Assembly (NCBI GenBank): GCA_003576915.1
Contig: QEVF01000011.1
Location: 44,260-108,259 of the forward strand
Origin: Planctomycetota bacterium
Lineage (GTDB): Bacteria > Planctomycetota > UBA8742 > UBA2392
Length of the DNA stretch: 64,000 nt
Reading direction: 5' to 3'
This document shows, piece by piece, positions 7,089 through 63,874 of the stretch. Positions within the stretch are counted from its first letter, which is position 1. Each line of letters starts with the position of its first letter. The notes below the pieces were generated by a model. It made no database searches. It saw nothing but the letters and a program-made list of their open reading frames with translations, and was not told the origin of the DNA. A program made the position numbers and the translations under genes.

Positions 7089-9464
7089 ATGTCCCTGCTT
7101 GACGCCCTCAATGAGCAGCAACGCGACGCGGTGACCACGATCCAGGGGCCGCTGCTGGTGCTGGCCGGGCCCGGCTCGGGCAAGACCCGCGTGATCACCA
7201 CACGCATCGCCTGGATGATCGAACAGGGCATCTCGCCCTATCGCATCCTGGCCATGACCTTCACCAACAAGGCCGCGGGCGAGATGAAGGCGCGCGTGGA
7301 GAAACTCGCGCCCGGCAGCAACGTCCAGATTTCGACCTTCCACAGCTTCGGCGCCTGGCTGCTGCGGCGCGAGGCCGAACACCTGGGCTTTGCACGGGAC
7401 TTCTCCATCTACGATACCGATGACCGCGAAAGCCTGATCCGCCGCCTGATGAAGGACCTCAACATCGACAGCGCGTTCGTCACGGCCAGCGCGGCAGGCT
7501 ATGCGATTTCCGACGCCAAGAACCGCGGCATCAACCCCCACTACTTCGCCAGCGGCGCCTTTGACCCCAAAACCAGGGCCATCGCCGACATCTACGAGAA
7601 GTACCAGGCGGCGCTCAAGCAGGCCAACGCCATGGACTTCGACGATCTGCTCGTCCTGCCCCTGGAACTATTTCACAAACACGAGGCCGTTCTCGAAAAG
7701 TACCGCGACCGCTTCACGCACCTGCTCATCGACGAATACCAGGACACCAATACCGTCCAGTACCAGCTCGCCAAGCTGCTGGCGTCGCGCGAAAAGAACC
7801 TCTGCGTCACGGGAGACCCGGACCAGAGCATCTACTCCTGGCGCGGCGCCGACATCCAGAACATCCTCAACTTCGAGCGCGACTTTCCCCAGGCCCGCAC
7901 CGTCGTTCTGGGCCAAAACTACCGCAGCACGCGCAACATCGTGGCCGCCGCCGACGCCCTGGTGAAGCACAACGTTGCGCGCAAAGACAAGAAGCTGACC
8001 ACCGACAACGAGGAAGGTTCCCGCGTCCGCATCTGCAAATGCCAGAACGAGGTCCACGAAGCGCTGACCGTGGCCGACGCCATAGCCGCCTTGCGCCGCG
8101 ACGAGAACATCGACTACGGCGAAGTCGCCGTGTTCTACCGCATGAACGCGCAGTCCCGCGTGCTGGAACAGGCGCTGCGCGAACGCAGCATTCCCTACCA
8201 GCTCATCGGCGCGGTCGCCTTTTACCAGCGCCAGGAAATCAAGGATGTGCTCGCCTACCTGCGCCTGCTGGTCAACCCCCGCGACAGCGTTGCTTTCGCG
8301 CGCGCGCTGATGCGCCCGGCGCGCGGCGTGGGCGAGGGCACCCTGGCCAAGCTCACGGCCGCGGCAGCGCCCGGCGGACGCACCCTGCTCGATGTCGCCA
8401 AAGACCCCAAAGCCGCGGGCGTGGCCGGAGTCCAGAAGCGGGCCCTGGACGGCCTTTCAAAGCTGGCCCATATGTACGGCGGCCTTCTCTCCGGCCCGCT
8501 TCACCCCATCAGCCAGATCGTCGAGCGCGTGGTCATGGAAAGCGGCTACATGCAGGCCCTCAAGGAGGACGTAGACCCCCGCGCCCAGGACCGCATCGAA
8601 AACGTCAAGGAACTGATCTCCGATGCCCGCACCCGGGAGCAGCAGAACCCCGAACTCGATCTCGGGGCCTGGCTTGAGCAGGTCGCCCTCGTCAGCGACA
8701 CCGACAACCTTGACGCCCAGAAACCCGCCGTCACGCTCATGACCCTGCACAGCGCCAAGGGCCTCGAGTTTCCGGCAGTGTTCATCGTCGGCCTTGAAGA
8801 CGGCTGCCTGCCCCACAGCCGCGCCATCCAGGGCGACAGCGACCTTGAGGAAGAACGCCGCCTGTGCTACGTGGGCATCACGCGGGCGCGGCGCTTCCTG
8901 ACGCTTTCGCTGGCGCGCCATCGTGAACAGTTCGGCAACTTCCAGCGCAATGCTCCCTCGCGTTTCCTGCGCGAGATTCCGCCGGACCTGTGCGAGACCC
9001 GCGATCTCTCCGGCGCCGCCGAGGCCTATCTCGGACACTGGGCCGACCAGTGGAGCGGCCGGCGCAAGAGCCAGGCCGGCGTTGAATACCGCGAAGGCGA
9101 CAACCCCTTCGACTTCAGCCATGCCGCGCCGGGCGATGCCGCCGACGACGAAGGCGATCTGCCCCCCGTCGAGGATGGCCCCGCCGACCACCTCGGGACC
9201 GCCGCCAGGCGGCCCATGGCCGGGCGCGGGGAGACCAGAACCAACAGCCTGTTCAGGGAAACGCCAGAGTCCGAGCCGGCCCCCGAAAGCCGGAGCTACG
9301 CCTCGGACTTCAAAACGGGCGATCGCGTGCGGCATGCCGTGTTCGGCATCGGGCGGATCCTGGAATGTACGGGCTCGGGCGAGAAGGCGCGGGTGCGCGT
9401 GAGCTTCCAGGGCTGGGGCGAGAAGAACCTGGCCCTTGAGTTTGCGCGGCTGGAGCGGGTCTGA
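7089..9464 (+). CDS. pcrA: ATP-dependent DNA helicase PcrA/UvrD (SF1)
   Basis: LNEQQRDAV..LLVLAGPGSGKTRVIT (Walker A), LLIDEYQDTN, VTGDPDQSIYSWRGA, QNYRST, TLHSAKGLEF, YVGITRAR. C-terminal Tudor-like GDRVRHAVFGIGRI. Confidence 0.95.
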   Translation: MSLLDALNEQQRDAVTTIQGPLLVLAGPGSGKTRVITTRIAWMIEQGISPYRILAMTFTNKAAGEMKARVEKLAPGSNVQISTFHSFGAWLLRREAEHLGFARDFSIYDTDDRESLIRRLMKDLNIDSAFVTASAAGYAISDAKNRGINPHYFASGAFDPKTRAIADIYEKYQAALKQANAMDFDDLLVLPLELFHKHEAVLEKYRDRFTHLLIDEYQDTNTVQYQLAKLLASREKNLCVTGDPDQSIYSWRGADIQNILNFERDFPQARTVVLGQNYRSTRNIVAAADALVKHNVARKDKKLTTDNEEGSRVRICKCQNEVHEALTVADAIAALRRDENIDYGEVAVFYRMNAQSRVLEQALRERSIPYQLIGAVAFYQRQEIKDVLAYLRLLVNPRDSVAFARALMRPARGVGEGTLAKLTAAAAPGGRTLLDVAKDPKAAGVAGVQKRALDGLSKLAHMYGGLLSGPLHPISQIVERVVMESGYMQALKEDVDPRAQDRIENVKELISDARTREQQNPELDLGAWLEQVALVSDTDNLDAQKPAVTLMTLHSAKGLEFPAVFIVGLEDGCLPHSRAIQGDSDLEEERRLCYVGITRARRFLTLSLARHREQFGNFQRNAPSRFLREIPPDLCETRDLSGAAEAYLGHWADQWSGRRKSQAGVEYREGDNPFDFSHAAPGDAADDEGDLPPVEDGPADHLGTAARRPMAGRGETRTNSLFRETPESEPAPESRSYASDFKTGDRVRHAVFGIGRILECTGSGEKARVRVSFQGWGEKNLALEFARLERV

Positions 9465-9589
9465 CACCACGACGGCAGCGCGCTTTACGGGTTCGCCCCC
9501 TTCGGTCGCTGTCTGCCCCGCTCGGTTTGCGCTTGCCGTTGGCAGCGCGGAACCACTTCCACAAAGCTCCAGGCACGCGCCACAAACAG

Positions 9590-9621
9590 CACCGGCCGCC
9601 CGCGGGCGGCCGGTGTGATTT
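9590..9621. terminator. GC-rich hairpin between convergent pcrA and the PPC-repeat gene (bidirectional terminator candidate)
   Basis: caccggccgcc-cgc-gggcggccggtg followed by tgattt on the plus strand. Its complement is followed by ctgtttgtgg on the minus strand. Confidence 0.6.
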
Positions 9622-9632
9622 CAGGTGCAGCA

Positions 9633-12482
9633 TCAGCGGCCGGCAAGCCGGCGCCTGGAGAACCAGAGGGCGGGCAGCAGCAGCGAGGCCAGCAGCCACA
9701 GGTTCAGGGAGTCGTCCCCCGTCGAGCAGCCGCCACCGCCCTTGGGGCCGGGGTTGAGGCTCGAACCGAGGGTGAAGCTGCCATTGCCGGAGGCCGGGTT
9801 GTCGCCCCCGCCTCCCGCCAGGCTCACGGTGATGCTTCCCAGGGTGGCAAAGCCGTCAATGGCGTAGGTCCAGGAAACGGTCCGCGTCTGTCCGGCGGGA
9901 ATCGCGACGGGCAGGACCGGGTTGGTGGTGCCGGTGGCCACGTACTGGTAGGTCACCGTGGTCGCCCCCGCCAGGAAGGTGATGCTGCCCGGAGCATTGA
10001 AGGTGCCCGTGGCCCGGCCCGTGGCATTGCTGACCACGGCTTCGAGGATGAGCACGCCGCCCGGCACCAGGTTGCTGGTCGTGCCGGCGCGGATGTTGCT
10101 GTACGTGAGCTGCGGGACCGCCGGCACGCCGCCGGACACCGTGAAGGTATCGGCAGGGTCGCCGGGCAGCCTCCGCGTGCCGGACAGGCCCACGGCGTTG
10201 ACGCTGATGACGCCGTTGGTCGTGGCCGGATTGCCCGTGATCTGGAACGTGATGTTCTGGTTCGCGCCCGCCGCGATCGCGACCGGCATGGCCGGCGTGG
10301 GGGCGGTGATGGTGTATTCGGTGGTCACCGTCGCGCCCAGCGCATGGGTGAGGCGCAGCGTCAGGCTCGTGAGATTCTCAGAACCCATGGCGGCCGTGTT
10401 GGACACGTTCACCGTGACATTCACGCTGCCGCCCACCGAGGCGTCCATGGTCTTGGGCGCGGCCACGGTCACACTGTTGATCTGCAGCGGCGTCAGGGGA
10501 TTGGCGTTGTTGATGTTGACATTGACGGCGTAATTCATGGCGCGCGACGCCCAGCGGAAAACGCGGAAGTAGATGTCGCCGGAGGCGGGAGGCGTAAGCC
10601 CGAGGGCCGTGTAGGCATCGCCGGCGTTGGCGGTGACCACGACCTTCTGGAAACCGGCGCTCTCGCGGGTGAGGTTGCGGTTCATGAGCCCGTCCGCGAC
10701 GTCGGAAAGCGCGCCGCTGCCGGTGTTCATGTCGTAGACCTCGAGATCGAGGTCCATTTCCGTGCCGGCCGTGTAGATGAGGGTGATTTCCACGGACTGG
10801 CCGTTGGAGGCCGAAATCTTGTACCAGTCCGCGCCGTCCATGGCCTTGAGGCCCGGGGTCAGGCCGCCCAGAAGGCGGGCATTGGCTGAAGTCTGGGCTT
10901 CGGCCAGGGTGTCGTTGGGTTCTCGGGTGTCTTCGGGCGCGATGCTCAACGGCGTCAGGGTGGGGCCGCCGGCCGCGCCGTTGATGTACACGGTCAGGGA
11001 GTAGGTGCCGTCCGCGGGCACGTTGCCGGGTATGACGCGGATCAGGTAGTCACCGGCCGCATAGCCCGTGGTCCCGCCGCTGCCCACGGTGCCCCAGATG
11101 CCCACGATTTCCTTGGCGGTCGTGCCCGCGGGCGTCTTGACCGTCGAGTTGTTGTTGGGAATGAACGTGAAGTCGATGCGGTCGTCGATCAGGCCGGGGT
11201 TGGCCGCGTTGGGCTTGTAGAGTTCGATGTCAAGGTTGTCCGTCGCGGGGGCGGTGTGGGTCAGGTGAACTTCCAGGGTGCCGCCGTTGGGCACATTGAC
11301 CTTGTACCAGTCCTGCTCGTTGAGTCCCGACGAGTAGAACATCTTCAGGCCCGAGTGGACGCCGGCAGCCAGCGTCGCGGCCGTGGCGGCGGTGTCGTTG
11401 TTGCCGCTGCCGGTGTCGTAGATGTCGTCCGTCACGTTGGTGACGGTAAAGGCGATGTTGTAGTTGCCGGCGGTGTAATAGAAGCCGATCTGGTTGGGCG
11501 GCAGTTGCACCCAGGCCAGCACATGGAAGTAGTAGGTTCCGGCACCCAGAGGCGCCGTGGTGAGTGATTCGGATGTATTGACGGTCGCCGGAAAGGTCAG
11601 GTTGAAGTTGGGAGGCGGGAAGGTGTCCGAGGCGCCCTGGAACGAAAGCACACCACCGGCGTCGTCGATCCAGAAGAGATCGAAGTTGATCTGCTGGGTT
11701 CCCGTGGTCGTGGCAAAGCCCGTCAGGTTGACGTTGATGCGGCCGGGCTGCGGCAGGGTGACCTTGTAGTAATCCCAGCCGGTGTAGGTGCGCGTGTTCA
11801 GCGTCGTGGTGCGGGGGCTGCCGGTGCCGGCCGGGGTGGCGTCTGCGGCGTTGGCGAGAAAATGGTTGTTGGAATAGAGGCCCTCGGAGGCGTCGGGCAG
11901 GAGCGTGGCGGTGCTGAATTCCACCGACCAGTGATAGGCCAGGTTCTGGCCCGAGGGGATGCCGCCGGAAACGACGTAAAAGCGCAGGTAAATGTTGCCG
12001 GCGGGGCTCACCGTGGCCGAAGCCACGGCGCCGTTGTAGGGATCATTGACGCCGCTGGTCCCCGTGCCGTTGGTGCGCAGGGTGCGATAGGCCGTGGGCG
12101 GGCTGAGGGGCCCGGCCAGCACGACGCCGTTGGCATCCAGGACTTCAACGCCGATGGCCGCCGTCGCGGGCGCCAGGCCTTCCTGATAGACGTAAACGGA
12201 CGCGATGCTGTCAGGCGCGCCGTTGATCAGGAAGTAGTCCACATCGCCGGAAACCAGGTAGAGCTGCTCGTCAAAACTCGGGGCGTTGAAGAGCACGCCG
12301 AAAATGTTCTGGCTGCTGTAGTGGGTGCAGCCGGCGACCGTGGCGCCCGCCAGGTTGTTGTTGGGCTCAAAACCGTCATTGGTGGCCTGTGCAAACAGCG
12401 GGGCGCAGAGGCCCGCAAACAGCGTCAGAGCAGCGAGTCGAATCCCGTTCACAGTATTCTCCCAGGCCGGAGTATCCGGCAA
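9633..12482 (-). CDS. Large secreted PPC (pre-peptidase C-terminal)-repeat / Ig-like-repeat protein with C-terminal Cys-containing sorting signal
   Basis: Signal peptide ..RLAALTLFAGLCAPLFAQA. Repeated modules such as EPNDTLAEAQT..GADWYKISASNGQSVEITL..DLDLEVYD and NNDTAATAATL..EQDWYKVNVPNGGTLEVHL..LDIELY. C-terminus GGGGCSTGDDSLNLWLLASLLLPALWFSRRRLAGR. Confidence 0.8.
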   Translation of the reverse strand: MPDTPAWENTVNGIRLAALTLFAGLCAPLFAQATNDGFEPNNNLAGATVAGCTHYSSQNIFGVLFNAPSFDEQLYLVSGDVDYFLINGAPDSIASVYVYQEGLAPATAAIGVEVLDANGVVLAGPLSPPTAYRTLRTNGTGTSGVNDPYNGAVASATVSPAGNIYLRFYVVSGGIPSGQNLAYHWSVEFSTATLLPDASEGLYSNNHFLANAADATPAGTGSPRTTTLNTRTYTGWDYYKVTLPQPGRINVNLTGFATTTGTQQINFDLFWIDDAGGVLSFQGASDTFPPPNFNLTFPATVNTSESLTTAPLGAGTYYFHVLAWVQLPPNQIGFYYTAGNYNIAFTVTNVTDDIYDTGSGNNDTAATAATLAAGVHSGLKMFYSSGLNEQDWYKVNVPNGGTLEVHLTHTAPATDNLDIELYKPNAANPGLIDDRIDFTFIPNNNSTVKTPAGTTAKEIVGIWGTVGSGGTTGYAAGDYLIRVIPGNVPADGTYSLTVYINGAAGGPTLTPLSIAPEDTREPNDTLAEAQTSANARLLGGLTPGLKAMDGADWYKISASNGQSVEITLIYTAGTEMDLDLEVYDMNTGSGALSDVADGLMNRNLTRESAGFQKVVVTANAGDAYTALGLTPPASGDIYFRVFRWASRAMNYAVNVNINNANPLTPLQINSVTVAAPKTMDASVGGSVNVTVNVSNTAAMGSENLTSLTLRLTHALGATVTTEYTITAPTPAMPVAIAAGANQNITFQITGNPATTNGVISVNAVGLSGTRRLPGDPADTFTVSGGVPAVPQLTYSNIRAGTTSNLVPGGVLILEAVVSNATGRATGTFNAPGSITFLAGATTVTYQYVATGTTNPVLPVAIPAGQTRTVSWTYAIDGFATLGSITVSLAGGGGDNPASGNGSFTLGSSLNPGPKGGGGCSTGDDSLNLWLLASLLLPALWFSRRRLAGR

Positions 12483-42458: not shown

Positions 42459-45400
42459 GCAAATGACGAACGCGCCGACTACCGCTCGAAGACCGTTGCT
42501 GGGCCTGCTGATCGCCCAGTTCTTCGGCGCGTTCAACGACAACGCCTGGAAGATGGTCGTCATTCTGCTCGGCATGCGCGCGGTCGAGCAATCCCTGGGA
42601 CCCGGCGCCGAACTTGACGCCGCCGCCCAGAAGCAGGCCATGCTGGCCCTGGTCACCCTGACCGTGCCCCTGATGCTGTTTTCGCTGCCTGCGGGCGCCC
42701 TGGCCGATCGCTGCTCAAAGCGCAGCGTCATCATCGCCATGAAAGTCCTGGAGCTGGTCTTGATGGGCGCAGCCACGCTGGTGCTGCTTCAGCCCGGGGC
42801 TTCCAGCGTGCCCGGCCTGCTGGTGCTGGCGCTGATGGGCCTGCAGAGCGCGCTGTTCAGCCCGGCGAAGTACGGGATTCTGCCCGAAATCCTGCCCCAC
42901 GAGCGGCTTTCCAGCGGCAACGGCCTGCTCGAAATGCTGACCATGGTCGCCATCATCGCGGGCACGGCTTTGGGCCCCGTGCTGCTCAAGCAGGCGCCCG
43001 AGCCCTGGGTCGTCGGCGCCGTCCTGACCTCCCTTTCGGTGCTGGGATTGGCGGCCTCCTTTGCCATTCCCAAAGTCCAGCCTGCCAGCGCCGGCGGCGG
43101 CATGGTGGACACCCTGCGCGGCGCTTTGAAGGCCATCCGTGGTGAGCGCATCCTGTGGCTGACTGTCATCGGCGGCGCCATTTACTGGGCTCTGGCAAGC
43201 CTCGTCGGACAGAACGTGATCGTCTATGCCAAGACGGTGCTGCGGCTGGACGAGCAGTTTGTGGGCGCGCCCCTGGCGGTGCTGGGCGTGGGAATCGGCC
43301 TGGGCGCGGTCCTCGCCGGGCGCATGTCGGCGCGCAAAGTTGAGTACGGCCTGATCCCCCTGGGTGCCATCGGCCTCGGACTCACAACCCTGGCCTTCGG
43401 GCTGATCCGCCCCGGCGTGGCGCTTTCGCACGTTTTCATGGCCGTGACCGGCCTGTGCGGCGGCTTGCTCGTCGTCCCGCTCAAAACGCTGCTCCAGTGG
43501 TATTCCCCCGCGGACAAGCGCGGCGGCGTCATCGCGCTGGACAACGTGCTGTCCTTCGCCGGCGTGCTTGCAGGAAGCATCACCGGCTACTTTCTGGCGG
43601 CAGCCGAGGTTTCGCCTTCGGGCATCATGATCAGCGCCGCGGCCCTGATGCTGGCGGGAACGCTCTGGACCTTCTACCTGCTGCCCGACGCCCTGCTGCG
43701 GCTGGTGCTGGTGGTGGCGACCAACACGATCTACCGCATCAAGCGCGTGGGACTGGAAAACGTGCCCCGTCAGGGCGGGGCGCTGATTGTGTGCAACCAC
43801 CTCTCGCTTCTGGATGGCCTGTTCATCATGGTCAGCGTGGACCGCCCGGTGCGCTTCATCGTGGATTCGGGCTACTTCCATAACCGCTGGCTCAAGCCCT
43901 TCATGAAGGTCCTGGGCGCCATCCCCATTTCGACGAGCGAGGGACCCAAGGTCCTCATGCGCGCCCTCAAGGACGCTGGCGATTACCTTGACCGCGGCGA
44001 ACTCGTCTGCATCTTCGCCGAAGGTCAGATCTCGCGCATCGGCATGCTGCTGCCCTTCAAGCGCGGCCTTGAACGCATCCTCAAGGGACGCAGCACTCCC
44101 GTCATTCCCTGCTGTCTGGACCGCATCTGGGGCAGCATTTTCAGCCAGGCTGCGGGGCGGGGCACCGCCCACGTTCCCCGCCGCCTGCCCTATGCCGTCA
44201 CCCTGCTCTTTGGCAAACCCCTGCCGGCCGGCACGCCTTCGGGCGAGATCCGCCGCGTGGTCAGCGAGCTGATTGAGGCAGCCTGGGACGAGCGCAAGGC
44301 CTCCTCGCGCCCCCTGGCCGAATCCCTGATCCGCATCGCCCGCCGACACCCCTTCAAGCTGGCCATGGCCGACCCCATGCGCGAGGGCGTAAGCTGGATC
44401 AAGGCCCTCACGGGCGGCATCGCCCTCGCCCGCGCCCTGCGGCCCAGTTGGGCCAGCCAGCAGCGCGTGGGCATCCTGCTGCCGACGAGCGTGGGCGGAG
44501 CCCTCACGAACTATGCCGCGTCTTTGTCGGGCCGTGTGACCGTGAATCTGAATTACACGGTGGGCCGCTCCGGCCTGGAAAGCGCCATCAGCCAGGCAGG
44601 TATCGAGACCATCGTGACCAGCAAGCAGTTCGTCGCCAAGGCCAGGCTGGAGCTGCCCGGCAACGTGCAGGTGCTGCACCTCGAGGAAATCGCTGCCGGC
44701 ATTACGACGCTCAAGCGGCTCTTCTGCCTTGCCGTGGCCTTTCTGGCCCCCATCTGGCTGCTGCGCCGACTGTGCGGCTGCCGTCGCACCGAAAGGCCCG
44801 ACGACGAAAGCGCCATCATCTTTTCCAGCGGCAGCACAGCCGAGCCCAAGGGCGTAGTCCTTACCCACTACAACGTGCTGAGCAACGTGGAGGCCGCGGG
44901 GCAGGTGCTGCACTTTGCGCCGCGCGACCGCGTACTGGGAATCCTTCCCTACTTTCATTCCTTTGGCAACCTTCTGCTCTGGGCGGCCACGCATCACGGC
45001 TGCGCCATGATCTGGGTTCCCAACCCGCTGGACGGTCCCGTTGTCGGCTACATGGTCGAGAAGTACGCGGCGACCATTGCGGCCTGCACGCCCACCTTCC
45101 TTCAGATCTACATGAAGCGCACCAGTCCCTCCCAGCTGGGCAGCCTGAGGCTGCTCATCACCGGGGCGGAAAAGCTTCCGCCCCGGCTGGCCGAGGCCTT
45201 TGAAGAGCACTTCGGCATCAAGCCCCTGGAGGGCTACGGCATTACGGAGTGCGCGCCCGTCATCTCCGTCAATACGCAGGACTTCCGCGCCGCGGGCTTC
45301 TACCAGAAGGGATCGCGCAAGGGCTCCGTGGGCCCGCCCCTGCCCGGCATCAAGGTCAAGACGGTTGATCCCGACACCCTGGCCGACCTGCCGCCGGGCG

Positions 45401-45933
45401 AGCCCGGCATGCTGCTGGTCAAGGGTCCCAATGTCATGACCGGCTACCTCAACCGGCCCGACCTCACGGCCAAGGCCTTCCACGAAGGCTGGTACGTCAC
45501 GGGAGACATCGCCCGCATCGATGAAGACGGCTTCATCTACATTACGGGGCGCCTGTCGCGTTTCTCCAAGATCGGCGGAGAAATGGTGCCCCACGGCAAG
45601 GTCGAAGACGCCCTGTGCGAGGCGGCGGGCATGGATGAGCGCGTCTTTGCCGTCACAGGCGTACCGGATGAAAAGAAGGGCGAGAAACTCGCCGTGCTGC
45701 ACACCCTCGACCCCGCGCGCATTCCCGCCATCATCGACGAGATGACTCGAAAGGGGCTGCCCAACCTGTTCATTCCCAAGGCCAACCTCTTCATCAAAGT
45801 CGAAAGCCTGCCCATGCTGGGCAGCGGCAAACTGGACCTGCGGGCTCTGAAAAAAATCGCTGAAGAAGCCCTGACCTCCCGATCCCAGCCAGAGCCCGTC
45901 GAAGAGCCCGATGCCCAGCCCACAGAGGCTTGA
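42457..45933 (+). CDS. Triple fusion: MFS lysophospholipid transporter (LplT-like) + PlsC acyltransferase + acyl-ACP synthetase (Aas-like)
   Basis: N-terminal MFS (IAQFFGAFNDNAWKMVV, about 12 TM). Acyltransferase HX4D (VCNHLSLLDG) and ..IFAEGQISR... AMP-binding IFSSGSTAEPKGV, ..YGITE.., ..GWYVTGDI... Start 42457 or 42463. Confidence 0.85.
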   Translation: MQMTNAPTTARRPLLGLLIAQFFGAFNDNAWKMVVILLGMRAVEQSLGPGAELDAAAQKQAMLALVTLTVPLMLFSLPAGALADRCSKRSVIIAMKVLELVLMGAATLVLLQPGASSVPGLLVLALMGLQSALFSPAKYGILPEILPHERLSSGNGLLEMLTMVAIIAGTALGPVLLKQAPEPWVVGAVLTSLSVLGLAASFAIPKVQPASAGGGMVDTLRGALKAIRGERILWLTVIGGAIYWALASLVGQNVIVYAKTVLRLDEQFVGAPLAVLGVGIGLGAVLAGRMSARKVEYGLIPLGAIGLGLTTLAFGLIRPGVALSHVFMAVTGLCGGLLVVPLKTLLQWYSPADKRGGVIALDNVLSFAGVLAGSITGYFLAAAEVSPSGIMISAAALMLAGTLWTFYLLPDALLRLVLVVATNTIYRIKRVGLENVPRQGGALIVCNHLSLLDGLFIMVSVDRPVRFIVDSGYFHNRWLKPFMKVLGAIPISTSEGPKVLMRALKDAGDYLDRGELVCIFAEGQISRIGMLLPFKRGLERILKGRSTPVIPCCLDRIWGSIFSQAAGRGTAHVPRRLPYAVTLLFGKPLPAGTPSGEIRRVVSELIEAAWDERKASSRPLAESLIRIARRHPFKLAMADPMREGVSWIKALTGGIALARALRPSWASQQRVGILLPTSVGGALTNYAASLSGRVTVNLNYTVGRSGLESAISQAGIETIVTSKQFVAKARLELPGNVQVLHLEEIAAGITTLKRLFCLAVAFLAPIWLLRRLCGCRRTERPDDESAIIFSSGSTAEPKGVVLTHYNVLSNVEAAGQVLHFAPRDRVLGILPYFHSFGNLLLWAATHHGCAMIWVPNPLDGPVVGYMVEKYAATIAACTPTFLQIYMKRTSPSQLGSLRLLITGAEKLPPRLAEAFEEHFGIKPLEGYGITECAPVISVNTQDFRAAGFYQKGSRKGSVGPPLPGIKVKTVDPDTLADLPPGEPGMLLVKGPNVMTGYLNRPDLTAKAFHEGWYVTGDIARIDEDGFIYITGRLSRFSKIGGEMVPHGKVEDALCEAAGMDERVFAVTGVPDEKKGEKLAVLHTLDPARIPAIIDEMTRKGLPNLFIPKANLFIKVESLPMLGSGKLDLRALKKIAEEALTSRSQPEPVEEPDAQPTEA

Positions 45934-46941: not shown

Positions 46942-47041
46942 TCCCGCACGGGGGAGGGTTTTCCCTCCCCCGCTTCTTTCACGATCGCCCTGCCCTGCCG
47001 CGCGCGGGGCAGAGCCTTTGAGTCAACCCCGCGAGGATTCC

Positions 47042-49495
47042 ATGAGTTACGGCAAAGCCGCCCTGATGTTTCTGGTGGCCACCGCGCTTGCCGCGGTGGC
47101 GTTGCAGGCCCCGAGCCAGGCATCCGTCGCCGAACCGGCCCAAGCCACGGTGCCGGGCCTGCGCCAGGACCGGCCAAAGGCTCGCCTGCCCCAGTTGCTC
47201 GAAGGCGAGCAGGAAGCCTGGGCGCCCGAGAAACCGCTGGACCTCAGCGGGCCCATGCCCAAGGACGAAGATGTCGCGGCCGCCATTTCCAAGGGCATCG
47301 AGCACCTGCTCAACAGCCAGGAAGAAGACGGCTCCTGGAACGAGCTGCTCATGGGCACCATGCTCTCGTTCGTGGCGGACTACGCGCTCGATGCCGTGTC
47401 CCTCACTTCGCTGTGCGGCATGGCGCTGCGCGCCCACATCAACTACGACAAGGCGCGCATCGAGGCAGCCCTGACCAAGGCCGTCGATTTCGTCATGGGG
47501 CAGGTGTTCCGCGGCAAACTCCCGCTGCGCACCTGGTATGCCAACTGGCGCTACACCACGGGCCTGCAGTTCCTCGCGCTGGAATACCAGAATACCCCCG
47601 ACGCCGACCGCAAAGCCACCCTGCAGGCCTGCGCGCGGCGCATGGCCGGCAGCCTGCTCAAGATCCAGTTGACCAACGGCGAAACGCCGCTGCTTGAACG
47701 CGCCAATGCCGCGCGCATGAGCGAGGCGGCAGCCGCCTATAAACTGCGCGGGCAGCTCGGCCTGGTGCTGCAACTCCCCACGGATGGCGACTATCGCGGC
47801 GGCGCGCTGGTCAAGGATATGCAGATCAACAGCCCCTCCCACCTCGCGGGAGTCAAGGCCGGCGACCGCATCATCGAGTGCGAGGGCCTGCGCATCGAAA
47901 ATGCCGTCGATTACTACCTGCTGGAAACAAGTTTCTTCTGCGGTCAGTCGGTGGCGCTCAAGGTCAAACGCGACAACAAGGTGGAAAGCATCACCTGCAA
48001 CATCCCCCTGGCCTGGGCCGCCTACCTGGGCATGGAAGTGGGCGGCAACAAGGGCGACAAGCCCGAGATCACCCGCTTCTTTGATCTCTCGCCGGCCAAG
48101 GCCGCGGGCTGCGCCATCGGCGACATCGTCACGGAGCTGGGCGGGGCCGCCATTGCCACCCCGCAGGACTACTACAACCAGCTCTACAAGCTCAAGATCG
48201 GAGAGAAGGTCAAGATCGTCCTCAAGCGCGGCGAGCAGACGCTCTCCGGCGAATTGATGGCGACGCTGGCGCCTGACGGCGATCTGGGCATTTACGTCGC
48301 CAACGAAGACGTCAGCAGCGATGAAGGCATCCTCGTCGGCGCCTCCATGGTGCGCCCCGCCCACGGCCCCGTCGTTCCCGGCCCCGGCGGCGCGGCTCTG
48401 GGCATGAAGCCCGGGGACCGCCTGACCCACGTCAACTGGATCCCCGTATCCTCGGCGGATCAATTGGCGGGCCTGGAGGCCACCATTCCCGCCGGCATTC
48501 AGGTGCGCGTGCACTACACGCGCAGCGGGCAGAAGTTCGAGGGCTTTGTGGTGGCCCGCGCCAAACTCTCACCCGGATCCCTGGGCGTGGTGCTGGACGT
48601 CGTCAACGCGGCCGACCCGCCCCGCATCAAGTCTCTGCTAGCCCAGGGCCCCGGCGCCAACGGCGGCCTGCAGCCCGGCGACGAAATCGTCTCCATCGCC
48701 GGCATCAACACCCCCACCCACATGTTCTTCTGGCGTGTCATGGCCAAGTTCTACGCCGGCGAGACCGTGGAAGTGCAGATCAAGCGCGGCGGCAAATTGC
48801 TCAAGGGCAACTTCACGCTCTGGAAGGCCGACAAGTCCTTCAGTGATGTCGAAGAGGGCGGCTGGGCCTACTACCCTGAACTGGGCGAGGCCACAAGCTT
48901 CGGCACATCCGCGGCCCTGCTTGCGCTGTATGAGGCTTCTTCCGTGTTTGGCATCAAGGTGCCGGCCCAGTCCATCAAGGCAGGCGAGAACATGGTCAAC
49001 GCCATGCGCTGCCTGGACCCCAACATCGCCGGGCTGGAAACCTACGCCTACCGCCGCGGAACGCTCGAGAAAGTTCCCGGCCTGCAGGGCTACGTTCAGG
49101 ACGTGCGCGGCTGCCTGGGCCGCAACGCCATCTGCGAACTGGCCATGTTCAAGGCCAAGCGCCGCACGCAGCAGCACCTGGAGAAGACCCTCCAGGCCTG
49201 GGTGGACCTGCGCGGCGAACTCGACCGCGTGCGCAGCTTTCCCCTGACCCACCTGCAGGAGCTCTACAACAACGCGGCCTACTACTGGGTGTTTGGCCAC
49301 TATTACGCCGTCAAAGCCGCCCGCGAGGCCGGCGGCAAGATCTACGACAAGGTCAATGAAGTCGTGGTCAAGGCGCTGCTGCTCAAGCGCGAGAAGGACG
49401 GCACCTGGCTCAACCACGAGAGCTTCGGCAAGTGCTGCGGCACGGCACTGGCACTGCTGGCCTTCGGAGAAACCAAGGGCGCCTGGCGCAAGTAG
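47042..49495 (+). CDS. Secreted QW-repeat toroid protein interrupted by four PDZ domains
   Basis: Signal peptide MSYGKAALMFLVATALAAVALQA. N-terminal NSQEEDGSWNE. Four PDZ-like units (GVKAGDRIIECEG, GCAIGDIVTELGG, GMKPGDRLTHVNW, GLQPGDEIVSIAG). C-terminal ..LLKREKDGTWLN... Confidence 0.8.
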   Translation: MSYGKAALMFLVATALAAVALQAPSQASVAEPAQATVPGLRQDRPKARLPQLLEGEQEAWAPEKPLDLSGPMPKDEDVAAAISKGIEHLLNSQEEDGSWNELLMGTMLSFVADYALDAVSLTSLCGMALRAHINYDKARIEAALTKAVDFVMGQVFRGKLPLRTWYANWRYTTGLQFLALEYQNTPDADRKATLQACARRMAGSLLKIQLTNGETPLLERANAARMSEAAAAYKLRGQLGLVLQLPTDGDYRGGALVKDMQINSPSHLAGVKAGDRIIECEGLRIENAVDYYLLETSFFCGQSVALKVKRDNKVESITCNIPLAWAAYLGMEVGGNKGDKPEITRFFDLSPAKAAGCAIGDIVTELGGAAIATPQDYYNQLYKLKIGEKVKIVLKRGEQTLSGELMATLAPDGDLGIYVANEDVSSDEGILVGASMVRPAHGPVVPGPGGAALGMKPGDRLTHVNWIPVSSADQLAGLEATIPAGIQVRVHYTRSGQKFEGFVVARAKLSPGSLGVVLDVVNAADPPRIKSLLAQGPGANGGLQPGDEIVSIAGINTPTHMFFWRVMAKFYAGETVEVQIKRGGKLLKGNFTLWKADKSFSDVEEGGWAYYPELGEATSFGTSAALLALYEASSVFGIKVPAQSIKAGENMVNAMRCLDPNIAGLETYAYRRGTLEKVPGLQGYVQDVRGCLGRNAICELAMFKAKRRTQQHLEKTLQAWVDLRGELDRVRSFPLTHLQELYNNAAYYWVFGHYYAVKAAREAGGKIYDKVNEVVVKALLLKREKDGTWLNHESFGKCCGTALALLAFGETKGAWRK

Positions 49496-49512
49496 AAGAA
49501 ACGTTACAAGGC

Positions 49513-49546
49513 AAGGGGCAGCCCGCGGGCTGCCCCTTTTTGTTTG
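49513..49546 (+). terminator. Rho-independent terminator after the PDZ-toroid gene
   Basis: aaggggcagccc-gcg-ggctgcccctt followed by tttgtttg. Confidence 0.85.
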
Positions 49547-49553
49547 CTGCGCG

Positions 49554-50777
49554 TCAGCCCTTGACGCACACGACCTGCCGCAAGCTGTGAAGGACTTCCA
49601 CGAGGTCGCGCTGGGCCTCCATCACGGCGTCGATGGGCTTGTAGGCGCCGGGCGTTTCGTCGATCACGTCGGCGTCCTTGCGGCACTCGATGCCCGCCGT
49701 GGCTGCCTCGTGATCGGCGAGGCTGAAGCGCCGCCTGGCCTCGCCGCGCGACATGGCGCGTCCCGCGCCGTGAGAGCAACTGTGAAAGCTCTCGGCGTTG
49801 CCCAGGCCGCGGACGATGTAACTCTTCGCGCCCATGGAGCCGGGAATGATGCCCAGGTCGCCCGGGCCCGCGCGCACGGCGCCTTTGCGCGTAACCAGAA
49901 TCTCCTGGCCGTAGTGCACTTCACGGGCGACGTAATTGTGGTGGCAGTTCACGGCCACCAGGTCGGCGTCAAAGGGTTTGATCCGGGGCACGCGGCTCAC
50001 CGCGCGGATCACGGCGTCCATCATCAGGCGGCGGTTGAGCATGGCGTAGTTCTGGGCCCATTCGACGGCCTCGACGTAATCGGCGAAATGCTCGCTGCCC
50101 TCTTCGAGGTAGGCGAGATCTTCGTCGGCCAGGTTCTTCACGTGGCCGCGCATATCTTTCTTGGCCAGCTCGATGAAGAACGTTCCGATGCGGTTGCCCA
50201 CTCCGCGCGAACCCGAGTGAAGCATGAACCACACGTGCTGCGCTTCGTCGAGGCAGACCTCAATGAAGTGGTTGCCCGTGCCCAGGGTGCCGAGGTGGGC
50301 CACCGGGTGCGCGTTGCGCTGGATGTGCGGATACTTGCCGACAATGCGGCCATAACCCGGCTCGAGGGCCTTGAATGCATCGGCGTAGGTTTCGGGCGGG
50401 CTCTGCCAGGCGCCGCGGTCGTTGCGGCCACCGCTGTCGGTACGACCGTGGGGTACGGCCTTCTCAATGGCGGTGCGGACCCCATGCAGGTCGTCGGGCA
50501 GGTCGCTCGCCTGCAGCGTCGTGCGAACGGCGCACATGCCGCAGCCGATGTCAACGCCCACGGCCGCGGGCACAATGGCGCCCCGGGTGGGCACAACGGA
50601 GCCGACGGTGGCGCCCAGGCCCCAGTGAACGTCGGGCATGGCGGCCACCCACTTGTAAATGAAGGGCAGGCGCGCCGTGTTGATGAGCTGGGCACGCGCT
50701 TCGTCTTCGAGTTTGACGCCGTGGACCCAGGCCTTGATCGGCGCGGCATCCTTGGCGGTGATGAGTTCGTAGTTCAT
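49554..50777 (-). CDS. rtcB: RNA 3'-phosphate/2',3'-cyclic phosphate--5'-OH ligase RtcB
   Basis: Alignable over its full length (from memory) with E. coli RtcB: MNYEL..PDVHWGLGATVGSV..GVDIGCGM..GTLGTGNHFIE..HSGSRG..NCHHNY..IPGSMG..SCSHGAGR..RQVVCVKG. 407 aa. Confidence 0.95.
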   Translation of the reverse strand: MNYELITAKDAAPIKAWVHGVKLEDEARAQLINTARLPFIYKWVAAMPDVHWGLGATVGSVVPTRGAIVPAAVGVDIGCGMCAVRTTLQASDLPDDLHGVRTAIEKAVPHGRTDSGGRNDRGAWQSPPETYADAFKALEPGYGRIVGKYPHIQRNAHPVAHLGTLGTGNHFIEVCLDEAQHVWFMLHSGSRGVGNRIGTFFIELAKKDMRGHVKNLADEDLAYLEEGSEHFADYVEAVEWAQNYAMLNRRLMMDAVIRAVSRVPRIKPFDADLVAVNCHHNYVAREVHYGQEILVTRKGAVRAGPGDLGIIPGSMGAKSYIVRGLGNAESFHSCSHGAGRAMSRGEARRRFSLADHEAATAGIECRKDADVIDETPGAYKPIDAVMEAQRDLVEVLHSLRQVVCVKG

Positions 50778-51982
50778 GTGTTGGGGGCATTATCTTCGTC
50801 GTACATCTTCCGCATTACTTCAACCAACGCGTCGTGGGCAACCTCACTTGCAGCTCGCGTCCATGCGTTGCTATGAGGTCCCGATTCGTCTACGCGCCAC
50901 CAATCCGATTCGCAGAGTACTTTCTCGGCAATCTGGAGACGACGCATGAGTTTGTCAGGTTCAGTTGCACCAAACTCCTTTGTCAATACCTTCCACAGAG
51001 CAACCAGAAACACTTGGGCGGCGATCACAGAGTGCTCGCGCGGAGCCCACACAGTGGGCTTCGCATCGCCCTCGTGAAAAACTGCATTTCGAAGCTCGTA
51101 AAGATCGACAAACCAGTTCCATAAGACCGGCTGGTCACGTCGCTTCTGGAGGTGTGGCAGGAGCCGGCGTTTGACCACGGCCCCAAACCTGTTTCTTTCG
51201 GCGGGAAGATCGAGTAACCAGTCCAGACGATCTGCGAGGATTTCTTTCTTGGCGAAATCCCCCTTTTTCCGCTGCCGAGGGTTCTCTGGTGTTGTGGCTT
51301 TTAGAAGTACCTCTATTGCGCGCAGCGCCATTGCTGCCTCCTCGTGGTCCAACGTCCAATCGTCGTCCACGTAAGAAAGGAGAAAGCAGTGGATTGCGTT
51401 GAGGACTCCCAGCTTTTTGGGGTCACTTTCGGGCATTGCAACGGCCTGCAACGAATCCAGCAACTTCTTGTTCACCTGAATGTCGCTAAGACCGTGCGCC
51501 CAAGAGGGACAGCTAAACCTGACCTTGTTCGAATCATACCCCATGTCATCGTGATCGAAGTATTTTCGCCGAAAGGTAAATGCGAACCAAGGTTGGGCTA
51601 TGTCAACTCCTTCTTGGAAGTATGGTCTGAAGATGGCGTAGTTCGCATAGCCAATCAACGACGCGCGCTCCTCGTTGTCTGCAATCGCCGATACGGCCAC
51701 AAGGCGGCATGCTCGGAGTATTGCCTGTTTGACGTTTGCGTCGGGTTCGAGCCAAATGGGTGCACCGTTGTGGCAAACTACGGTGAGGTGTCCCCGCGAA
51801 TCACCTTTGATTGAGACATGTTGATCCATCAGCGTTCGAACATGGTCGGTTATCAACTTGTCCCAACCTTCGTTGGCGAGCGAATCACGGCGAACTGTTC
51901 TAAGCTCGATCGCCCCTACATGCGCAGGCTCGCAAAGATCAAGCCATGGAAGGAATGCAAAGAGCACGCGATGGTTTTTCAT
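50774..51982 (-). CDS. HEPN-motif protein (Abi/ApeA-like architecture: unknown N-terminal domain + C-terminal Rx4H helical domain)
   Basis: 402-aa ORF. Its TGA overlaps the rtcB ATG (ATGA 50774-50777). C-terminus ..LDHEEAAMALRAIEVLL..FVDLYELRNAVFHEGD..VIAAQVFLVALWKVL. Visibly lower GC and A/T-ending codons compared with neighbours. Confidence 0.65.
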   Translation of the reverse strand: MKNHRVLFAFLPWLDLCEPAHVGAIELRTVRRDSLANEGWDKLITDHVRTLMDQHVSIKGDSRGHLTVVCHNGAPIWLEPDANVKQAILRACRLVAVSAIADNEERASLIGYANYAIFRPYFQEGVDIAQPWFAFTFRRKYFDHDDMGYDSNKVRFSCPSWAHGLSDIQVNKKLLDSLQAVAMPESDPKKLGVLNAIHCFLLSYVDDDWTLDHEEAAMALRAIEVLLKATTPENPRQRKKGDFAKKEILADRLDWLLDLPAERNRFGAVVKRRLLPHLQKRRDQPVLWNWFVDLYELRNAVFHEGDAKPTVWAPREHSVIAAQVFLVALWKVLTKEFGATEPDKLMRRLQIAEKVLCESDWWRVDESGPHSNAWTRAASEVAHDALVEVMRKMYDEDNAPNT

Positions 51983-52234
51983 GTTTTCGAGCCCCGCAAA
52001 GGTGTTGGCCAGCTTCCGCTACAACAGTTTTAGTCGGGGCCGGTTGCGAAGTCTCATACTTCGCCAAACGCCAGGCAGGCGTGACCGGTTTTCTGGGGGG
52101 ATGGTCCGGTCCCGGCCCCAACTGTGGTCCACGTCGTTCTACCTCCGGGGCACGGCCAGCCGCGCCCCACAAGGCCGGCGCCGCCTTCGGGGTGGAAGAG
52201 GGGGGACACCCCGCGCGGCGCCGGCCGCGCAGCT

Positions 52235-52426
52235 TCAAGCCGCAACGGCCATCAGCGTTTCAGTTTCGGGTTCGGCGTCGGAATCGATGACTTCGTCGGG
52301 CCAGTAGCTGCAATCGACGTAGCCCTGCGGCGCCCAGCCGGGCAACGCGGACTTCGGCTCGCGCAGATACTCGTGACGCTGCGGCTCCCGGATGGGGAGC
52401 GGTTTGATCTGAATTCTGTGTTTCAT
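52235..52426 (-). CDS. Small acidic hypothetical protein (63 aa)
   Basis: ATG at 52426 is preceded by aagagg with a 6-nt spacer. High GC3. MKHRIQIKPLPIREPQRHEYL..DEVIDSDAEPETETLMAVAA. No family recognised. Confidence 0.4.
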   Translation of the reverse strand: MKHRIQIKPLPIREPQRHEYLREPKSALPGWAPQGYVDCSYWPDEVIDSDAEPETETLMAVAA

Positions 52427-54692: not shown

Positions 54693-54806
54693 GAACGGGT
54701 CTCCGGAACTCACTTCAAATGTAAACGATAGTCGGCCCCGGCGCGACGAACTCACGCCCAAATTGGCGCGGGCCGCCGGAGTTCGCCGACGGCCCGCCTG
54801 GTTCAA

Positions 54807-55187
54807 GAGTGGCTCTGTAAGCCGGGTTTTGTGCGCCGGGCGGTAAATCCCGGAGCGGCAATCATTCGTCTAGGCCTGCGGTTGCCCGCAGGCTCCAGCA
54901 GCCTACCCGGGTCTTCAAACGGCGCGAGCCGCGCCGCGCGCCATATGCCGCGCTCGACCCCTATTTGGCCTTGCTCCGGAGGGGGTTTTGCCTGCCGGCC
55001 CTGTCGCCAGGGCTCGCGGTGCGCTCTTACCGCACCTTTTCACCCTTACCCCGATGCGCCGGGGCGGTATGTTTTCTGTGCCACTGTCCCTGGGCTCGCG
55101 CCCGGTTGCCGTTAGCAACCCTCCTGCCCTGTGGAGCCCGGACTTTCCTCCCGCCGCTGATCCGGCCGGCGATTGCCCGAACCACTC
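54807..55187 (-). ncRNA. rnpB: RNase P RNA, bacterial type A
   Basis: Minus strand: 5' gagtggttcggg..ggcgggaggaaagtccgggctccacagggcagg..ggtaagggtgaaaaggtgcggtaagagcgcacc..ggagcaaggccaaatagggg..acaaaacccggcttacagagccactc 3'. P1 pairs gagtgg/ccactc. All universal blocks are present. Confidence 0.92.
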
Positions 55188-55194
55188 GCGCGCG

Positions 55195-63798: not shown

Positions 63799-63874
63799 GG
63801 GCCGGTAGCTCAGTTGGTAGAGTACCTGAATGGCATTCAGGGGGTCATGGGTTCGAATCCCTTCCGGTCCACCA
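63799..63874 (+). tRNA. tRNA-Ala (anticodon GGC)
   Basis: Hand-folded cloverleaf. Acceptor gggccgg/ccggtcc with G3:U70 (Ala identity pair). D arm gctc-agttggta-gagt. Anticodon arm cctga-atGGCat-tcagg. T arm atggg-ttcgaat-ccctt (one U-U mismatch). Encoded CCA. Confidence 0.9.

Follow-up and report, generated by a model that had tools for sequence, protein, structure and literature searches.

What is a gene of no recognised family doing in direct overlap with the start of an RNA ligase gene? The question is raised by a 64,000-nucleotide (nt) stretch of a Planctomycetota bacterium (GenBank assembly GCA_003576915.1, contig QEVF01000011.1, positions 44,260 to 108,259 of the forward strand), the whole of which is called the window here. 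An open reading frame (ORF) of 402 amino acids (aa) runs into rtcB, the gene of the 3'-phosphate/5'-OH RNA ligase RtcB, and an earlier note made from the letters of the DNA had proposed that the two encode an RNA cut-and-reseal pair with a HEPN-type RNase as the cutting partner. Our analysis suggests that the 402-aa protein belongs to a family whose C-terminal domain is probably a divergent HEPN domain, and that one small subclade of this family has become linked to rtcB. HEPN RNases are familiar enzymes, and so is RtcB; what would be new is their coupling in one bacterial operon, by way of an unannotated family.

The gene pair and its protein family

The family gene, as the 402-aa ORF is called below, occupies 50774..51982 of the minus strand including its stop codon, and rtcB (407 aa) follows on the same strand at 49554..50777. 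The last codons of the family gene read AAC ACA TGA, and its TGA (50776-50774) overlaps the ATG of rtcB (50777-50775) in an ATGA junction (50774..50777, minus). The ORF and the overlap are as first described, and, judged from the sequence, the junction is one of translational coupling between the two genes. The description of rtcB as canonical also holds. The Pfam RtcB model (PF01139) is covered over positions 1-426 with an E-value of 2e-127 and 426 bits against a cut-off of 27, and the GCGMC, GTGNHF, NCHHN and SCSHGAGR motifs for metal binding and guanylylation are all kept. The protein is 83% identical to the RtcB of two Planctomycetota loci, L009 and L090 (L numbers denote loci, P numbers family proteins). 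Directly after rtcB lies a GC-rich hairpin terminator (49513..49538, no strand assigned) that is shared with a convergent PDZ gene. Because the terminator follows at once and the next gene is convergent, rtcB is taken to be the final gene of the unit.

The usual companions of rtcB had been reported as missing, and within the window this is correct for rtcA and YrlA. No homologue of rtcA was found anywhere in the 64 kb, YrlA was found neither in the window at the gathering threshold nor near the locus at E<=10, and the window proteins include no homologue of any recurrent rtcB-neighbour gene, as collected from 80 rtcB loci. The statement does not extend to the relatives, where one family gene lies between rtcB and rtcA and where YrlA occupies the corresponding slot of sister genomes.

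In the NCBI record of the family gene, from a Planctomycetota metagenome-assembled genome (MAG), translation begins at an internal GTG, which leaves a protein of 308 aa comprising the C-terminal part only; the segment 51699-51982 (minus) is absent from that call. The conserved residues P12 and W13 fall in the omitted stretch, which argues that the 402-aa reading is correct. An exhaustive phmmer search of 1.84 billion cluster representatives yielded 77 family proteins, nearly all of them 370-410 aa long and most alignable over most or all of their length. Word-indexed searching with the window protein gave two matches, the NCBI record of the same gene and the JGI protein P0002 (47% identity), and across the word-indexed searches, whether started from the protein, from the family alignment or from the subclade alignment, only P0001, P0002, P0005 and P0043 came up. 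Family proteins are labelled 'hypothetical' in every source. The family was previously unannotated, and gene-callers repeatedly err on it: in addition to the 308 of 402 aa in the NCBI record, P0052 was called as 196 aa of an intact 396-aa ORF (L122:286-885), and P0004 was given a GTG start that overlaps rtcB (L005:77-94). Low GC content at third codon positions (GC3) and atypical codon usage in GC-rich genomes probably lie behind these truncated calls.

The predicted HEPN-like domain

The HEPN proposal started from an R-N-x3-H motif in the C-terminal part of the protein. The motif lies within LYELRNAVFHEGD, residues 294-306, where R298-N-A-V-F-H303 forms a candidate catalytic Rx4H (codons 51074..51091, minus; R298 at 51089-51091 and H303 at 51074-51076). 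R-x4-6-H occurs seven times in the 402-aa protein against 3.3 occurrences expected from composition, so that an Rx4H by itself is within chance. R298 and H303 are meaningful because they are invariant in 61/61 aligned homologues, and they are also invariant in a 26-sequence alignment of the C-terminal domain; the conservation of this R and H on which the proposal hinged is therefore established. The other invariant residues among the 61 members are P12, W290 and H317, whereas M1, W13, N114, F118, P159, D206, W312, L333, Y339, D345 and W374 are conserved in at least 90%. Position 316 is E in 54 members and Q in 7, and the residue that follows R298 is mostly polar (N 28, S 24, G 8, H 1).

An AlphaFold model built from the family alignment (pLDDT 90.5, pTM 0.91; a single-sequence model with pLDDT 34 was not used) divides the protein into two domains. 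Residues 1 to ~167 (51482..51982, minus) are predicted to form an alpha/beta domain with seven strands, carrying the near-invariant P12, W13, N114, F118 and P159. It gave no Pfam match even by consensus and no fold match when the full-length model was submitted to Foldseek, in keeping with the initial remark that the N-terminal part resembles nothing recognisable. Residues 168-402 (50777..51481, minus) are all-helical in the model, as had been claimed for the C-terminal part, but the boundary lies at ~167 and not at ~230. The predicted helices of this domain span 188-203, 212-230, 286-304 and 314-337, and segment 231-285 is a variable, lowest-confidence insert after helix 212-230. The Rx4H motif is placed at the C-terminal end of helix 286-304 (helix 3), followed by a loop (305-313) and by helix 314-337 with E316-H317. 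Conserved acidic residues in helix 212-230 are E215 (49 E, 4 D) and E224 (49 E, 5 D), with no K/R at +4. The published description of HEPN domains includes an insert placed between helices 2 and 3, an acidic helix-2 residue (often as Ex3[KR]) and a polar N, D or H after the R (PMC3710099). Compared by the order of secondary structure, the predicted layout of helices, motif and insert agrees with this description; S is not among the listed post-R residues.

Profile and fold comparisons also point to HEPN proteins. The hidden Markov model consensus of the C-terminal domain has one match among 24,736 Pfam models, and this is HEPN_Apea (PF18739) with E=0.022 over model positions 13-128 of 136; the match is sub-threshold, at 15.7 bits against a cut-off of 24.4, and individual members gave nothing. 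HEPN proteins lead the Foldseek matches in the PDB when these are ranked by probability (Las1 0.38, AF0298 0.35, Csm6 0.33), TT1696 and a second Csm6 are within the top 24, and the non-HEPN matches that were checked among these 24 have a probability of 0.10 or less. Weak matches to 4l1j brought up an HD-domain phosphohydrolase as a candidate, which was ruled out on the ground that the invariant residues form no H...HD...D pattern.

Several searches weigh against the assignment. Pfam, NCBIfam and PADLOC returned nothing for the window protein even at E<=10, and no meaningful match was obtained for any of the 61 members in Pfam (E<=1), PADLOC or PHROGs. Sequence-profile searches of the PDB with the full-length and C-domain alignments returned nothing, and Foldseek searches of the PDB and BFVD with the full-length model gave no significant match, the best E-values being 0.1-0.5. 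No HEPN profile or fold was matched significantly, so HEPN membership is put as probable. The invariance of R298 and H303, the place of the motif at the end of predicted helix 3 and the one Pfam model touched (at sub-threshold level), which is the Apea-like family that the earlier note had named, support that note in reading the motif as a HEPN signature. Taking sequences and predicted structure together, we consider it very likely that the C-terminal domain is a divergent HEPN domain, distantly Apea-like and outside the ApeA family.

The comparison with ApeA is instructive in this respect. The ApeA system consists of one protein, an abortive-infection nuclease of the HEPN type whose cuts fall in tRNA anticodon loops (bioRxiv 10.64898/2026.01.26.701840). 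It shares with the present family an occurrence in defence islands, and PF18739 is the only Pfam model that the C-domain consensus touches. On the other hand, Ec2ApeA is longer (catalytic R502) and its N-terminal and Mid domains are mainly alpha-helical (bioRxiv 10.64898/2026.01.26.701840), whereas the window protein has 402 aa and a predicted alpha/beta N-terminal domain. The window protein fails both the Pfam threshold and the PADLOC ApeA models, and the latter match none of the 61 members. ApeA is also not reported beside rtcB, and 'RtcB' is mentioned 0 times in the paper cited (bioRxiv 10.64898/2026.01.26.701840).

A HEPN-like fold need not imply a nuclease. The domain could bind RNA or a nucleotide and assist or regulate RtcB, as archease does, and the tight coupling to rtcB would suit such a stoichiometric cofactor. 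HEPN domains were first described as nucleotide-binding and some HEPN families are non-catalytic, but these typically have no Rx4-6H (PMC3710099), whereas here the R and H are invariant in all 61 members and are accompanied by a second invariant His and conserved acidic residues. Moreover, most family members have no rtcB nearby that could be assisted. A non-catalytic cofactor is for these reasons quite improbable, and a HEPN-type nuclease is the reading pursued below.

Pairing with rtcB and the structured leader

The window protein and its five closest relatives form a subclade of six lineages with protein identities of 27-57%. All six proteins have a WNW[FY][VI][DE] signature before the catalytic-type R. 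The five that are present in the 61-sequence alignment are monophyletic with a neighbour-joining bootstrap of 100/100, a value that was obtained with capped distances and covers five of the six lineages; the sixth, P0052, is placed with them because it has the signature and is 57% identical to P0004. In five of the six lineages the family gene adjoins rtcB, in three gene orders and with spacers of -4 to +8 nt. It precedes rtcB in the window, with the ATGA overlap, and in L001 (P0002, 47% identical to the window protein), where the junction reads TAG-C-ATG (+1). It follows rtcB in L004 and L005 (P0004, 28% identity; TAG-GG-ATG in L005, +2) and in L006 (P0005, 31% identity; 8-nt spacer). In L122-L124 the gene of P0052 lies between rtcB and rtcA, separated from the former by a 4-nt spacer and overlapping the latter by ATGA (-4). 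The exception is P0003 (L002, L003), which has no rtc gene within 6 kb and no junction. For two of these relatives other than L001 the adjacency was recognised with tblastn, as RtcB C-termini that are cut by contig ends and lie directly upstream of the family gene. Since L122 has both genes, the idea that the family gene replaces rtcA was ruled out. Downstream of rtcB-fam in L004 (1505-5935) there are an unannotated 247-aa gene (GC3 0.61), a VIT-VWA protein of 740 aa and a VWA protein of 398 aa. VWA modules are known companions of Ro/RNA-repair systems.

Outside the subclade the picture is different. The most abundant member, P0007, is encoded between genes that match DrmD (1e-129) and DrmMI (6e-106) and a gene for a DruE-like helicase (2e-143). 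P0020 adjoins an AAA_15/OLD-TOPRIM (OLD-like ATPase) gene, P0010 lies within a mobile-element-like block with a DNA methylase, and P0017 adjoins a PRiA4_ORF3 gene. Plasmid copies occur on Microvirga megaplasmids and on pMOL28, a conjugative plasmid of Cupriavidus, where an integrase is the neighbour. No rtcB was found near P0008, P0012 and P0019, no conserved antitoxin-like partner was found in the family contexts examined, and Pfam searches with the proteins encoded around P0003, P0004 and P0007 were uninformative. Read from gene content, these wider contexts are what a conflict or defence gene that stands alone leaves as its footprint. The P0007 locus (L114:88-14484, also L115-L118) is DISARM-like, with DrmD, DrmMI and a DruE-like helicase of 1895 aa, and a conserved unannotated gene of 199 aa comes directly after P0007.

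Adjacency to rtcB among homologues, as the earlier note had anticipated, thus exists in five of six subclade lineages but not in distant members: from the gene neighbourhoods, it is a trait of one small subclade and not of the whole family. Within the subclade, adjacency in five of six lineages, with three gene orders and tight junctions, excludes a single inherited insertion or a single hot spot as its cause. A functional link between the presumed nuclease and the ligase is on these comparative-genomic grounds well supported.

Directly upstream of the family gene lies a conserved structured leader that had been overlooked in the earlier note. Its main element is a cloverleaf-like RNA with a 12-bp closing stem round three hairpins (52018..52128, minus), with a minimum free energy of -54.7 kcal/mol and z = -4.1. 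Further upstream the predicted fold includes a long conserved hairpin (52173..52231, minus). The leader elements of relatives are at L001:56-115 and 248-356, L009:72-131 and 278-386, and L090:62-170. In L001, L009 and L090 the cloverleaf shares 90-91% identity and has two compensatory pairs, and the long hairpin is 87% identical in L001 and L009, where a tRNA gene precedes the hairpin and leader. Just upstream of the long hairpin in the window, at the position of that tRNA gene, there is a putative 63-aa ORF (52238-52426, minus) with no Pfam match. A covariance model detects the cloverleaf in four loci only, namely the window, L001, L009 and L090. No Rfam family matches it, and a metagenome scan gave 22 stretches, 21 of which are chance matches. 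The leader may serve in regulation or as a signal for processing, or it may be a substrate or a site of recombination.

The cloverleaf is the left border of a variable slot and stands upstream of rtcB whichever cargo follows. In L009 and L090 four tandem YrlA Y-RNA-like genes (L009:384-972; L090 about 200-793) fill the segment from the cloverleaf to the rtcB ATG, after which come rtcB and rtcA. The copies score 30-76 bits with the YrlA model RF02553, the best reaching 75.9 against a gathering score of 69, and no rsr/TROVE gene is visible within 4 kb downstream in these two loci. The L001 leader is 97% identical to the L090 leader over 144 nt, and the cargo is a protein gene in L001 and a YrlA array in L090. 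Because the leaders are nearly identical and the cargos differ, the tRNA-mimicking YrlA array and the HEPN-like gene are alternative cargos of one slot in this clade.

The leader and the slot bring programmed RNA processing into consideration. The nuclease would then cut one RNA at defined sites and RtcB would join the ends, in splicing, circularisation or maturation, in the manner of Ire1 and RtcB. Candidate substrates would be the structured leader on the gene's own transcript, a conserved RNA that in both the window and L001 belongs to the transcription unit of the gene, or tRNA-like RNAs. In the sister genomes L009 and L090 the slot is filled by YrlA RNAs, which mimic tRNA. A HEPN nuclease and RtcB are, moreover, the established enzyme pair of XBP1 splicing. 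However, the cloverleaf occurs in four loci only and is absent from the visible part of the rtcB-fam loci, and no intron-like or bulge-helix-bulge substrate was identified. The leader is also found without the protein in L009 and L090, so that nothing links it to the protein rather than to rtcB. We regard this role as a long shot.

The variable slot could also mean that the family gene is an incidental neighbour, a mobile and compositionally foreign gene that was inserted at a hot spot beside a tRNA gene upstream of rtcB. Apart from the different cargos behind the 97% identical leaders of L001 and L090, this would be consistent with the tRNA gene before the leader in L001 and L009 and with the atypical composition of the gene. 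The family gene has a GC content of 0.534 and a GC3 of 0.585, against 0.664 and 0.857 for rtcB and a GC3 of 0.82-0.87 for six other neighbours, and no other 1.2-kb stretch of the 64 kb has a lower GC content, its value being ~4.5 standard deviations below the mean. The contrast in GC content that the earlier note had pointed out is therefore real, but the 75% given there for rtcB came from one sampled line and the average of the gene is 66%. The derived picture of an acquired gene beside a native rtcB is too simple, since low GC3 recurs in all six subclade lineages (window, L001, L002, L004-L006 and L122; 0.54-0.62 in the family gene against 0.77-0.88 in the flanking rtcB, rtcA and other genes). 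Recent import is not a simple explanation for a GC3 that is kept in six lineages at 27-57% protein identity, because a single import would have ameliorated. The low GC3 may rather be maintained, for example by a codon de-optimisation that keeps a dangerous enzyme scarce, or be renewed by continual turnover. The adjacency in five of six lineages, in three gene orders and with different flanks, including a position between rtcB and rtcA, speaks against coincidence. On this comparative evidence the incidental-neighbour explanation is largely excluded, and we consider it very improbable.

Models for the proposed nuclease-ligase pair

In view of the above, a reversible cut-and-reseal module can be considered, in which RtcB is expressed together with a HEPN-type endoribonuclease that has a sensor or substrate domain at its N-terminus. 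The N-terminal alpha/beta domain would presumably act as the sensor or substrate-binding module and the C-terminal domain as a HEPN-type metal-independent endoribonuclease, with the subclade having turned into a dedicated partner of the Rtc RNA-repair ligase. In the window the nuclease gene and rtcB would be on one transcript behind the clade-specific structured leader, and the two are translationally coupled. As a consequence of joint transcription and coupling, every cell that makes the nuclease would also make the ligase. Once activated, the nuclease would cleave RNA; the analogy with ApeA and PrrC makes anticodon loops of tRNA, or further RNAs that serve translation, the most plausible targets. 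The cuts would leave 2',3'-cyclic phosphate and 5'-OH ends, which are the ends that RtcB joins and which the known enzymology of HEPN RNases and RtcB leads one to expect (PMC3710099; PMC11090510). The pair could in this way work as a reversible, self-limiting RNA-cleavage module in stress or phage defence, with a built-in reset. We infer the RNase activity, its end chemistry, target and trigger, and the reversal of the damage by RtcB from this line of argument; the toxin-antidote or resettable abortive-infection logic suggested in the earlier note might apply on the same terms. For the module as a whole our confidence is evenly balanced.

Some observations tell against such a module. None of the contexts examined outside the subclade, at least nine in number, has rtcB, nor does the subclade member P0003, and the members without rtcB nearby imply that the nuclease is tolerated without RtcB. 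Among species-representative genomes, the 80 rtcB loci closest to that of the window all lack a family gene within 5 kb, from which it follows that the pairing is rare. Finally, the order rtcB-fam-rtcA in L122 fits a constructive role in repair at least as well as a toxin role.

In that constructive role the nuclease would trim or re-cut damaged or stalled RNAs to clean 2',3'-cyclic-phosphate and 5'-OH ends for RtcB, analogous to RtcA, which is likewise a supplier of cyclic-phosphate ends. The position of the gene between rtcB and rtcA in L122-L124, coupled on both sides, would be well explained, as would its position directly after rtcB in L004-L006, the place that rtcA takes in L009. The lack of a conserved antitoxin-like partner in the family would also be consistent with this role. 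Conversely, members of the wider family lie in defence islands or on mobile elements and not in repair operons, and the lasting GC3 of 0.54-0.62 is what might be expected if a dangerous protein is kept scarce. We know of no RNA-repair system in which a HEPN nuclease acts as the healing enzyme. A constructive repair nuclease is on balance unlikely, and the reversible cut-and-reseal module is preferred.

A bolder version of the cut-and-reseal proposal would make the genes a dedicated, co-translated HEPN-RtcB pair for programmed reversible RNA cleavage, either as a resettable immune or stress switch or as a bacterial counterpart of Ire1-RtcB. This is put forward tentatively, as something that may well not hold. 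In the switch version, cutting of tRNA or rRNA would stop translation and the ligase of the same operon would restore it. If either version were true, the interchange of nuclease and Y-RNA genes would mean that both act on the same axis of RNA damage and repair.

The known systems resemble the proposed module in different respects. In the Ire1/RNase L KEN group with RtcB, a HEPN-fold nuclease with an N-terminal sensor cuts and RtcB ligates, as for metazoan XBP1 mRNA; KEN is classed as HEPN (PMC3710099). That system differs in being eukaryotic, with unlinked genes, a kinase sensor and a defined substrate, whereas no substrate was identified for the window protein. PrrC and RloC make HEPN-type tRNA breaks with cyclic-phosphate and 5'-OH ends that can be resealed by a ligase (PMC3710099). 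There, a host nuclease and the phage repair enzymes T4 Pnkp and Rnl1 are adversaries, whereas here both genes are coupled in one operon of one genome, and the ligase is RtcB and not an ATP-dependent Rnl. The HEPN-MNT pair HepT/MntA has in common with the window a HEPN RNase encoded alongside a neutralising partner, although neutralisation is here a proposal and would proceed by repair of the product and not by modification of the toxin. No nucleotidyltransferase (MNT/NTase) gene was found beside the window gene or in more than 10 family contexts, and the window protein, three times larger, includes a domain more. RtcB reportedly reseals 16S rRNA cut by MazF, and RtcB2-PrfH is said to repair colicin E3 damage. 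These cases share with the proposed module the resealing by RtcB of RNA cut by a metal-independent toxin RNase, but in them nuclease and ligase are not encoded together and coupled: a separate toxin-antitoxin locus, or a competitor cell, supplies the nuclease. The rsr-yrlA/B-rtcBA operon (Ro60/Y RNA) has the same ligase and operon logic, with YrlA at the same slot in L009 and L090 and rtcA in L122; it differs from the window, where YrlA, rtcA and rsr are missing. A HEPN-like nuclease as a component of rsr-yrlA-rtcBA was not described in the literature searched, nor did the searchable literature yield any account of an rtcB operon that encodes a HEPN nuclease coupled to it.

The usual view of HEPN RNases and RtcB is that of adversaries, a nuclease of the host facing a ligase of the phage, or of partners whose genes are unlinked, as in eukaryotic XBP1 splicing. 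A hard-wired operon in three gene orders would be a concrete, testable case of self-inflicted and self-repaired RNA damage in bacteria. It bears on the natural substrates of bacterial RtcB, on whether abortive-infection responses can be reversible and, given the swap of a YrlA array for a nuclease at the same position, on the function of bacterial Y-RNAs. The proteins also define a new unannotated family with an invariant, catalytic-looking motif and a confidently predicted structure, spread over defence islands and plasmids.

Some further features were recorded in passing. A class A bacterial RNase P RNA (54802-55188, minus; 284.7 bits) is located ~3 kb upstream of the locus, and the only tRNA gene of the window at the gathering threshold is at 63799-63871 on the plus strand (Rfam, 64.1 bits). 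In L010, from another Planctomycetota MAG, 13 tRNA genes (7972-10500) lie ~1.7 kb downstream of an rtcB that is 73% identical. The ORFs of 511-995 aa at 49293-50876 (plus), 42715-45702 (minus) and 46979-48514 (minus) are antisense to real genes and are high-GC artefacts.

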